Source of the DNA: a virus
Taxonomy: Duplodnaviria; Heunggongvirae; Uroviricota; Caudoviricetes
Length of the DNA: 12,547 bases
IMG/VR virus record: IMGVR_UViG_2681813268_000016
Location: 1 to 12,547 of that record
Direction: 5' to 3' (one strand)
A program made the position numbers. This document shows positions 9,001 to 12,000 of this stretch, piece by piece; positions within the stretch are counted from its first letter, which is position 1, and each line of letters starts with the position of its first letter.

Positions 9001-12000
9001 GAACTCAAAAGAAATGGCGTCGTTGATAAAACTGGTCACACCTGGTTTCTGGCTGGCGAAGGTGAATCCCGGGTAACCGAAGAGCGGCCAGTAAAATCTG
9101 AAGCACAGGATATGCTGACCGGGGAGGTCGAACAAAAAGTTACCGCCGACATGATGATTGAGTTTATCGGTCAGGATGGGGCTAAAACGTGTGAGGAACT
9201 GGCGGGTAAGTTCGGTGTCAGTACTCGCAAGGTTGCTTCCACGCTGGCGGTGGTAACCGCAACGGGGCGGCTGGCACGCGTTAATCAGAACGGTAAATTT
9301 CGTTACTGCATGCCGGGCGATAATTTACCAGCAGAGCCGAAAGCCGCGCTGGTAACGGAAAGTGATGGTAAGGCCTTTCCTCAGCCAGCAGGTGCTGCGT
9401 TACCAGTCCGGGAAGCCGCAACACAGGAAGAAATTAAAACAGAAACTGTGGCGGACATTGTGCAGCCGTTGCCATCGTTTACCGAAACGCAAGCAGATGA
9501 GCTGATTTTTCAGTCCCTTCGCAGGGCAAACCTGGCGCTGCGCAGGGCGAAAAGTGATGTTCAGAAGTGGGAGCGAGTCTGCGCCGCGCTGCGGGAGCTG
9601 AACAAGCACCGGGATATTGTTCGACAGATTACTGATTCTTCCCGCCGTGTTGTATCGGAAAAGTGATTGCCGGAGGCGCTTATGGCAAAAGTATTTACAC
9701 AAGAAGAGCGGGAAAAAATTAAAGGGCTGATCGTGGAATTCGTACGCCTTAACGGACGAGGCACGATTCGGCAGTTATCGGATGAAATTGGTGTCAGTCA
9801 TGCGTCTGTCGGTCGTTTATGCATGGAGCTGGCCGCCAGTGGTGATGTTTACAATTCCGGTTACGGAGTATTCCCGTCTGAGCAGGCGCGCAAGGACTGG
9901 CAAAACGCCCGCAAAAAACTCTCAAGGGCAAAGCTGAAGAAACCATCTGTGGTTGATCCGGACCTTATCTGGCTATTACCAGACGGCGAAATACGCCGCT
10001 ACGACAGGCGCCTAAACATAATCTGTCGCGAGTGCCGGAAGAGTGAAGCTATGCAGCGTGTACTGGCTTTCTATCAGGGTAATTTTCAGGAGACGGTACT
10101 GTGAGTGAAATTAGCTATCAGGCTTCAATTACCGCTGGCATTCGCATCAAAGGAGAGGAGCATGGAAATAAAACCAGAAGATGAGTTAAGCAATATTGTT
10201 TTATTTCCGGTAAAAGAGGATAACCCTCGTAATCAGGTTAATTTTCTTTATGAGCCATCGGAAAGACCATATTGCCATCACGCTTCTGTCCGGGTTGACG
10301 AAAAAGAGCGTCAGGTCCGCTGTAAAATCTGCGGTGCGGTTGTGGAGCCGTTTGACTGGATGCTCTCTGTGGCAAAAAGAGAAACCAGACTGGCAGATGA
10401 TGTAAGGCTATTGCGCCAGGAGGAACAGGAAAGGCGGAAAAATATAGAAAAGTTAATTCAGATTGAGCGTAACGCGAAAGCGCGGATACGCAGGGCGACA
10501 AAATCCAGAACTGAATAATTAAATTTAGCACTGTAAATAAAATCAAATCCTTAACCGGAGGGATTTCTGCACCCTCAGAACATCAGGAGGCCGTCCGAAA
10601 GGGCGGTAGTGAAATGCGAAAATTCAAAATAATTATTGAAACGGGAATAGCCGGTGGAGATTTCGAGGATGAATTCGAAGTGGATGATGATGCAACACCA
10701 GATGAAATACAGGATGAAGCTAAAGATATTTTCTTTAACTACTGCAATTACTCATACCACGAAATAAAAGACGAAGAGGAAGAACAAAATGGCTGATTTT
10801 GGTTCAACTAAATATAACGCCAGTTTTGAAGAATGGCATGAACTGTTAATGGATTATGCAGAGTTACGCGGTGGAAGTGCCGCTGATGCTGAAGCATGGC
10901 GTGATGATTATGAAGCAGGGAAAACACCGGTCGAAGCATATTGTGATGAGTGGGGCGATGAATGAGCGAGATTAATTATCAGGAAGGGCATGAAAAGGCA
11001 GGGCAGGCAAAACCAGTGGCATGGCGATATCGCTACGTGAAAAAAGGCGTTACGGACTCTCAGGGGGAGCCGTGGGTTGGTGACTGGAAATATGTACCGA
11101 CAAAAGAGGATTGCAACGACAGGCCGAGCTATGAGATTCAGGTCTTATTCACTGTCCCGCCTGTGCCACTGACACCAGAAGGATTGATTAAAGCAGTGCG
11201 TTTCTATGAACAGGTAAAGCGTGAGAATCCGCCAGTCGAAACCGGAGCATGGAAAGACGCTGTTGACTGGGTGCTCAAAGAGGCTTACCAGGCTGTAAAC
11301 ATTGGTACCAAAGGAGATTGATATGACCACTTTTACCGACAAAGAACTGATTAAAGAAATCAAAGAGCGCATAGGCAGCTTGGACGTTCGAGACAATATT
11401 GAGCGCCGTGCTTATGAAATTGCTCTGGCATCGCTGGAAGCAGAGGCAGTTATGTTCTGTATATCAGGACAAAATGTAGATTCAGAAGAACATGTATCAA
11501 CCAGCAAAGCGGTTGTTGATGCCTGGGTTGAAGAATGGAATCAGGTTGACGGAAGTCCTGGCGAACCACTGTACAAAACTATGCCACTCTACTATCACGC
11601 TGCCTTGCCAGCGCCGGTAGTGCCGGAAGAAGCAACTCCGGAAAATGTAGAAATGCTCTCTGGCTATGTTTCCACGTACAAATTAACCGATAGCGAGCGC
11701 GATATTGCTGCCGAAATATGGAACGCCTGCCGCGCCGCTATGCTTCATGGGAAAGGAGAGTGATATGGCAACTTTAACAAAAAAAGAACGGGCATGGTTG
11801 AACGAATTACAGGACGTTCTTGATCGCTGCCCATCACCGAAAAAAATTGGTTTTTACACCATTGGCGATAAAAGCATTTACCTGTATGACCTGCGCCGCA
11901 TGGATGAAATCATGGAGGCTCTTGATAATCGTTCGTCGATGGATTGGTGTGTTGCTGTTCATGATATGAATGCAGGGTTTGATGAAAAGATTTTGTTCCC

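Follow-up and report, generated by a model that had tools for sequence, protein, structure and literature searches.

Two small, strongly acidic genes of an E. coli lambdoid prophage belong to conserved and separately mobile families and may encode charge-driven inhibitors

We analysed positions 1 to 12,547 of the IMG/VR virus record IMGVR_UViG_2681813268_000016, a stretch of 12.5 kb that we call the window and that covers the early part of an E. coli prophage of the lambdoid (Rac/Qin-like) type. The subject of this study is a pair of small open reading frames (ORFs), ORF A and ORF B, which overlap by 8 nt (ATGGCTGA) and lie in a variable stretch of the window between the replication genes and a group of Ea22-like ORFs (Table 1). 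A sequence-only reading of the window had pointed to two adjacent, very acidic proteins of 60 and 58 amino acids (aa) and had proposed them as candidate DNA mimics following the logic of Ocr and ArdA. The two ORFs lie on the plus strand where that reading placed them and its residue counts are correct. The ORF A product has 20 Asp/Glu against 5 Lys/Arg (net charge -15, isoelectric point 4.05, 8 aromatic residues) and the ORF B product has 16 acidic against 4 basic residues (net charge -12, isoelectric point 4.05), together with the aromatic residues already mentioned in that reading, of which we counted 9.

Both ORF A and ORF B are genuine conserved genes. They are annotated as coding sequences, with equal lengths and overlap, in related phages and in RefSeq genomes. 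Wherever the synonymous substitution rate (dS) is unsaturated, the ratio of nonsynonymous to synonymous substitution rates (dN/dS, Nei-Gojobori method) is 0.02-0.2 for both ORFs, indicating purifying selection. The ORF A value was 0.02 in comparison with a locus of 97% identity and 0.10 in comparison with a homologue from Klebsiella; ORF B gave values of 0.03-0.17 with the E. coli, IncI2, Enterobacter and Salmonella copies. Conservation is family-wide, with identities within the two families down to about 35-45%. The earlier description of the region as accessory is borne out as well: the two genes sit in a variable stretch of the operon and are conserved on mobile elements, with conservation across prophages found for both. 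In degraded Qin/Rac-like remnants both genes contain premature stops, and we conclude from these that the cassette decays with the prophage and is not domesticated by the host. Two loci (the L numbers denote the loci that we compared), L003:4054-4402 in E. coli H15 and L024:3001-3349 in PhiR42_1, have premature stops that cut both ORFs short at codon 36.

ORF A belongs to the Pfam family DUF7167 (PF23768) and matches its profile over the full length (positions 1-60 of 60) with 54.5 bits (E = 1.2e-14), where the gathering cut-off of the family is 24.4 bits. It also matches phrog_1997 (E = 2.7e-30), and its E. coli copies carry the RefSeq label 'DUF7167 family protein'. This membership gives no mechanism, the family being without assigned function. 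An exhaustive HMMER search for DUF7167 yielded 111 representative clusters at 50% identity, nearly all of them stand-alone proteins of 50-60 aa. A few members are true tandem duplications of the domain, and these two-domain proteins suggest that the working unit may be a dimer. The AlphaFold2 model of ORF A, obtained with a diverse alignment, has a mean predicted local distance difference test score (pLDDT) of 88.0. It consists of a beta-hairpin (residues 2-8 and 17-23) packed on a helix (29-43) and followed by an acidic tail modelled at low confidence, with a probable third strand at the alternating hydrophobic positions 44/46/48.

ORF B belongs to a family that has no match in Pfam or NCBIfam and no name in any source that we searched. 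It fits the C-terminal part of phrog_519 (E = 8.5e-23, positions 76-137 of the 143-position profile), which is itself annotated as function-unknown. Its AlphaFold2 model (mean pLDDT 88.5) is a three-helix bundle (13-27, 34-42 and 47-55), and the conserved aromatic and hydrophobic core of the family comprises F13, W16, L20, A24, W37, Y41 and W55. Searches of BFVD with ORF B returned only uncharacterised members of its own family. Both families are thus already catalogued, as a DUF or as PHROGs, with no function and no literature found for either.

Negative charge is clearly a conserved and selected property of both families. The net charge of DUF7167 proteins has a median of -11 (range -18 to -7, 67 diverse sequences) and that of the ORF B family a median of -10 (range -15 to -4, also 67 diverse sequences), with no sequence near neutral in either set. 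In both families, the acidic positions that are conserved do not coincide with those of the conserved hydrophobic core. Members of both are nearly always stand-alone proteins of 50-70 aa that have no conserved neighbour, a pattern that fits action on a host target or on a general one.

The sequence immediately upstream of ORF A appears to belong to the same module. Homology between differing prophage contexts begins at an AGGAGG hexamer, for example between the window and the Stx phage ArgO145 (L002). The predicted hairpin that separates this hexamer from the start codon recurs in every E. coli copy that we examined, including those with another upstream context, and a C-to-U change in the window replaces one of its pairs with a G-U pair. 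The whole-region z-score is only -1.75, the structure is not terminator-like and a comparison of the region with Rfam gave no match. If formed, the hairpin would bring AGGAGG and the ATG of ORF A to a normal effective spacing. Hairpin-bridged ribosome-binding sites exist in T4 genes 38 and 25, and by analogy positions 10585-10616 may constitute such a site.

ORF A lies about 3.5 kb downstream of the cro-like gene, past the replication genes. Because we found no plus strand promoter or terminator flanking ORF A and ORF B in the window sequence, we consider both to be part of a long rightward operon. By analogy with lambda, their expression would be delayed-early.

In E. coli the two genes form a fixed two-gene cassette, whereas outside E. 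coli each gene travels alone. The pair was found in 2,177 of the 5,426 complete E. coli genomes, 1,749 of which contain it at a coverage of at least 80%. ORF A is directly upstream of ORF B in 79 of 80 E. coli-type loci, with an identical offset of 175 nt, and the flanks of these 80 loci vary, with 24 upstream and 19 downstream sequence contexts. The scan of viral contigs, which was seeded with ORF B, retained only near-identical E. coli copies. The cassette follows the replication genes in the window and in loci L001, L004 and L005; in ArgO145 its neighbours are ead/Ea22 genes, close to the left end of the genome record. The adjacency pointed out in the sequence-only reading, which might suggest a functional pair, holds only in E. 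coli-type prophages; beyond these the two proteins are not a conserved pair.

DUF7167 is found in phages of both Gram-negative and Gram-positive bacteria, where it recurs in early or DNA-metabolism modules. In Klebsiella it occurs in a temperate phage and in Guernseyvirinae, and in the latter it runs into the beginning of a DUF2800/PD-(D/E)XK exonuclease gene, after which come genes for a gp2.5-like single-stranded DNA-binding protein (SSB) and a DNA polymerase. In Enterococcus Herelleviridae it sits after a DUF3850/ASCH protein. The corresponding product in Enterococcus phage PBEF129 (L019:2513-3013) is labelled 'exonuclease' and is a DUF3850/ASCH protein (PHROG annotation 'RNA-binding protein') without a nuclease domain. 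DUF7167 is also present in one GamL-RecT operon and beside gyrase and ligase genes in a 166-kb phage contig. No ORF B was found near DUF7167 in the Klebsiella and Enterococcus phages, and ORF A has few plasmid matches.

The most interesting aspect of these data is the breadth of the ORF B distribution, which covers at least six phage architectures and several hundred conjugative plasmids and recommends ORF B for anti-defence screening. The family is found in Enterobacter lambdoid prophages after an Ead/Ea22 gene, in Salmonella P2-like prophages, where it overlaps the end of gpA and borders a variable hotspot, in Aquitalea Mu-like prophages between lysis and terminase genes, in Ackermannviridae (Vi01-like) right after the major capsid gene, and in the KP34-like podophage phiKDA1 between metallophosphoesterase and polymerase/exonuclease genes. 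Two T5-like phages, EP_H11 and IME392, encode a NADAR protein with the ORF B domain at its C-terminus. Across contexts as different as those after Ead/Ea22, gpA or DUF1187, the homology starts exactly at the ATG of ORF B, and the ORF B gene alone is therefore the mobile unit.

Members of the ORF B family are carried by 554 plasmids, of which 516 are predicted to be conjugative and about 414 have copies that are 80-90% identical. The plasmid records that we examined are IncI2, including one that carries mcr-1. Their operon runs in the order CaiF/GrlA-like regulator, DUF1187, ORF B, SPFH and NfeD, and is located downstream of repA and ahead of the genes of the type IV secretion system. In loci L026:591-3271 and L027:8294-10974 the ORF B homologue is 86% identical, and its start again overlaps the stop of the preceding gene, here a different one, by 8 nt. 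It lies about 25 genes from the origin of transfer (oriT, mobC/relaxase), on the TraL side and past repA, with the direction of transfer judged from the RP4 layout. A position in the leading region of the plasmid was considered as an argument about ORF B and was set aside, since the IncI2 copy appears not to be at the leading edge.

Some individual records are worth describing. On a Raoultella IncU plasmid (L028:7001-13732), a distant homologue of ORF B is found among many unannotated small genes; a CRISPR-Cas cluster (Cas6, helicase, Csf2), possibly of type IV, follows about 2 kb downstream. In a Salmonella P2-like prophage (L013:5868-7085) a defence-like nSTAND1/AAA_16 gene follows the ORF B homologue at a distance of no more than about 700 bp; it sits in the variable region between gpA and portal, a hotspot of which ORF B marks the conserved edge. 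Record PP818812.1 ('Actinobacillus phage vB_Apl-pPE4') carries the E. coli cassette at 94% nucleotide identity, and in OR844942.1 ('Enterococcus phage Efm 3-10', 111 kb) the identity and E-value of the ORF B match equal those of the Salmonella phages listed alongside. The host labels of both records look doubtful and may reflect contamination or mislabelling.

We compared both proteins with known inhibitors. Neither ORF matched a DNA-mimic or anti-restriction family in Pfam (E <= 1), NCBIfam, PADLOC or the PDB (phmmer and profile searches), DUF7167 being the sole family match; the Pfam families of Ocr, ArdA, ArdB/KlcA, Gam, GamL and Ral gave no match to either. The top PDB profile matches, designed armadillo repeats, were rejected on the ground that a helix N-cap motif alone is held in common. 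The models of ORF A and ORF B likewise have no fold match to Ocr, to ArdA or to any solved structure. What the two share with Ocr and ArdA is that all are very acidic, are borne by mobile elements and have no enzymatic motifs. Ocr and ArdA, which inhibit type I restriction-modification and BREX, have protomers of 117 and 166 aa, and their dimers span 24-42 bp. At half to a third of that size, the two ORF products are predicted to be compact alpha/beta or three-helix domains, in contrast to elongated dimers. In Ocr, an elongated helical dimer, the carboxylates trace bent B-DNA, a geometry that the two models do not fit. An Ocr- or ArdA-like shape finds no support in the predicted folds, which are compact domains of 55-60 aa and not elongated B-DNA-like dimers. 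Furthermore, Ocr and ArdA are encoded by first-expressed or leading-edge genes while ORF A and ORF B apparently are not, as judged from lambdoid transcription.

Smaller inhibitors offer another comparison. T7 gp5.9 (which acts on RecBCD), phi29 p56 and PBS2 Ugi (both on uracil-DNA glycosylase) and T4 Arn (on McrBC/H-NS) resemble ORF A and ORF B in size (52-92 aa) and charge, but neither ORF has sequence or fold similarity to these small solved mimics or to AcrIIA4 and AcrIF2. T7 gp5.9 is a small acidic RecBCD inhibitor encoded just before exonuclease gene 6, and one DUF7167 context, that of the Klebsiella Guernseyvirinae, is also directly upstream of an exonuclease gene. The case for DUF7167 as a Gam- or gp5.9-like RecBCD inhibitor based on this adjacency is weakened by the other contexts: the Enterococcus 'exonuclease' is misnamed, one operon has GamL, and the remaining neighbours are gyrase and ligase genes or genes of unknown function.

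The best functional analogy for a possible action of ORF A or ORF B is TifA (Orf65 of Enterococcus phage phi47), a small protein with an unusually acidic surface and without the shape of B-DNA that directly inhibits type IV restriction enzymes (PMC10680825). TifA differs in having two domains, of which the N-terminal one is SH3-like; phi47-type phages are absent from the tblastn matches of both ORFs. Another comparison concerns the phage NADARs (AdfN), anti-DarTG1 enzymes that remove the ADP-ribose added by DarT1 from DNA (PMC11825919). The T5-like fusion links ORF B to such a protein as a C-terminal extension, although no catalytic domain, NADAR or other, is present in ORF B itself. Two phage records, EP_H11 and IME392, cover the fusion fully, and 4 of 646 NADAR-matching records reach 80% coverage at a looser E-value cut-off. 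As a Rosetta stone the fusion is real, yet it is confined to one T5-like lineage and we found no NADAR gene adjoining ORF B elsewhere; we therefore set it aside. The same was done with a 66-aa gene that adjoins ORF B in the Mu-like prophages and scores 19.9 bits on the Acb2/Tad1-hairpin model, below the Pfam threshold of 27.

We hypothesize, as a tentative reading that is quite possible and falls somewhat short of probable, that each protein is a stand-alone, charge-driven inhibitor of some nucleic-acid-binding protein. According to this hypothesis, two separate genes for small, folded and strongly acidic proteins are fixed as a cassette in E. coli lambdoid prophages, and their translation would be coupled through the 8-nt overlap within a delayed-early operon. 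Each protein alone would be a stoichiometric binder, driven by charge, that occupies the basic nucleic-acid-binding surface of its target, be it a host defence nuclease or another host DNA/RNA-binding protein. Blocking the target would help the mobile element to establish or to replicate. The two would then be nucleic-acid mimics in the loose sense of TifA and T7 gp5.9 and not B-DNA look-alikes of the Ocr/ArdA type. The inhibitor role and the nucleic-acid-binding target are what we infer. A role in host interaction or counter-defence would agree with the spread of the families over unrelated phages and, in the case of ORF B, over more than 500 conjugative plasmids; the NADAR fusion and the Acb2/Tad1-like neighbour are weak, circumstantial functional links for ORF B. 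The DNA-mimic idea of the sequence-only reading therefore survives in part: a loosely defined inhibitor driven by a conserved charge is plausible, while its Ocr/ArdA-type logic finds support neither in homology nor in fold, size, shape or position.

Several observations weigh against this hypothesis. In Pfam, PDB and BFVD searches neither ORF has sequence or fold similarity to any characterised inhibitor, and we found no literature on DUF7167, the PHROG identifiers, the RefSeq accessions or the IncI2 operon. Little weight can be given to acidity by itself, since small acidic proteins with quite different roles are common in phages. The NADAR fusion arose once in evolution, and the Acb2/Tad1 match is sub-threshold. 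ORF B adjoins late genes in the Ackermannviridae (following the major capsid gene) and in the Mu-like prophages (lysis and terminase genes), positions that fit poorly with a uniformly early counter-defence role. On IncI2 plasmids its distance from oriT, past repA, would put it off the immediate leading edge.

Alternatively, the two proteins may be accessory factors of the element's own DNA metabolism, modulating, as small acidic adaptors, an exonuclease, annealing protein, SSB or replication initiator, or they may inhibit RecBCD as lambda Gam and T7 gp5.9 do. The overlap of DUF7167 with the exonuclease gene in Guernseyvirinae, with SSB and polymerase genes following, argues for such a role and recalls the position of T7 gp5.9; so do the RecT operon, the gyrase and ligase neighbours, and the location of ORF B, which is coupled to gpA in P2-like prophages, follows repA in IncI2 and is near polymerase/exonuclease genes in phiKDA1. 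The adjoining replication and recombination genes nevertheless differ in each context and none is a conserved partner. One DUF7167 operon already has a nuclease inhibitor, GamL, the Enterococcus 'exonuclease' is in fact a DUF3850/ASCH protein, and the exonuclease module of the window lies in the opposite operon about 7 kb away. We regard a role in DNA metabolism as rather unlikely, although deserving consideration. It is less conceivable that the two proteins are obligate partners in a two-subunit complex and act as a unit. The fixed cassette with its 8-nt overlap in 79 of 80 E. coli-type loci, its presence in roughly a third of the complete E. coli genomes (the 1,749 at high coverage) and the movement of the block between different early-operon positions are what such a complex would predict, but in most other lineages each family occurs without the other. 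The start of ORF B homology at its own ATG and the Klebsiella and Enterococcus DUF7167 genes that have no ORF B nearby also count against it, and we judge the complex improbable.

The proposal that the proteins are classical B-DNA mimics of the Ocr/ArdA type, singly or as a pair, that block type I restriction-modification at DNA entry can draw on the dense Asp/Glu content conserved across both families and on carriage by phages and conjugative plasmids. It has to contend with the lack of any match at the level of Pfam, PDB sequence and profile, or fold, and with compact domains of 55-60 aa that are far smaller than the Ocr and ArdA protomers. The genes are also past the replication genes, delayed-early and without a promoter of their own, and from what is known of lambdoid transcription this late position in the operon would be too late to protect entering DNA. 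With ORF B apparently off the IncI2 leading edge in addition, we consider this proposal very improbable. That the ORFs are spurious or decaying, with acidity as a by-product of local base composition, is a reading that could appeal to the AT-rich sequence of ORF A (36% GC) and to the premature stops in some degraded remnants. It is refuted by the strong purifying selection, the family-wide conservation and the confident AlphaFold2 folds, and its probability is close to nil.

Returning to the hypothesis of charge-driven inhibitors, it is conceivable that it can be taken further. The ORF B family would then be a hitherto unrecognised broad-host counter-defence or host-takeover protein with a new acidic three-helix mimic fold that blocks an Enterobacterales-wide DNA-targeting immune or silencing protein and is shared by at least six phage architectures and by conjugative plasmids, among them the IncI2 type with mcr-1. 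DUF7167 would act as another inhibitor, not related to the first, with a target common to Gram-negative and Gram-positive hosts. We consider this extended version doubtful. Should the proteins prove to be inhibitors, a known functional kind would gain new members without homology to the others, and a new fold would join the few that nucleic-acid-mimic inhibitors are known to have. ORF B would be the weightier of the two, since about 40% of complete E. coli genomes and hundreds of conjugative plasmids carry it, including the IncI2 type, which has mcr-1 in the record that we examined, and its action as an inhibitor would matter for the host range of phages and the spread of plasmids. For the present the practical value is modest: the two genes, of about 180 bp each, are well-defined and easily synthesised candidates and a reasonable lead, not a discovery. 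Being real, folded (as predicted), conserved in charge and independently mobile, they justify inclusion in anti-defence screens.

The features of the window are collected in Table 1, where the gene names from the repressor to the replication genes are taken from the annotation of matching records.

Table 1. Coordinates of the two acidic genes, their translation signals and the other features of the window
Feature	Position	Strand or direction	Description
Integrase	1-1119	-	
Small ORF	1088-1366	-	adjoins integrase
823-aa ORF	1419-3890	-	
Repressor	5733-6506	-	S24/LexA-type
cro-like gene	6499-6714	rightward	
YdaT-like gene	6711-7136	rightward	
O-like gene	7144-8121	rightward	replication gene
DnaC-like gene	8128-8874	rightward	
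phrog_630 protein	8896-9666	rightward	256 aa
DUF977	9667-10104	rightward	
Zn-ribbon ORF	10105-10518	rightward	
AGGAGG hexamer	10585-10590	+	Shine-Dalgarno-like; 23 nt before ORF A ATG; left edge of ORF A module
Hairpin	10591-10606	+	GC-rich, 6 bp, CCGUCC-GAAA-GGGCGG; between AGGAGG and ORF A start; minimum free energy and centroid prediction
ORF A	10614-10796	+	60-aa acidic protein, DUF7167 / phrog_1997
GAGGA	10776-10780	+	Shine-Dalgarno of ORF B; made of Glu codons of the ORF A acidic tail; 8 nt before ORF B ATG
ORF B	10789-10965	+	58-aa acidic protein, unnamed family (C-terminal part of phrog_519)
Ea22-like ORFs	10962 onward		3' of ORF A and ORF B

Other genes of the window provided additional observations. 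The phrog_630 protein has weak matches (E about 1e-3) to MarR/ArsR-type helix-turn-helix models, a Ren-like exclusion PHROG and Csa3/CARF models of PADLOC, and it may be a winged helix-turn-helix regulator or an exclusion protein. In the leftward operon, whose ORFs were not compared with family libraries, no gene resembling lambda Gam was recognised. The C-terminus of the 823-aa ORF resembles a DnaQ-type 3'-5' exonuclease (DLETMG...NGANFD...HNALDDA); ahead of it lies a long stretch of low complexity and acidic composition that contains a CxxC...CxxC motif. Downstream of ORF B, ORFs 10962-11321 and 11302-11763 match Ea22-related PHROGs (phrog_660, phrog_5117 and phrog_60) and no Pfam family. 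The consecutive ORFs 11302-11763, 12039-12206 and 12203-12547 have a repeated motif in common (IALASLEAEAVMF / IALASLEAEPVVF), and the ORF A/ORF B cassette is embedded among modules with this motif.

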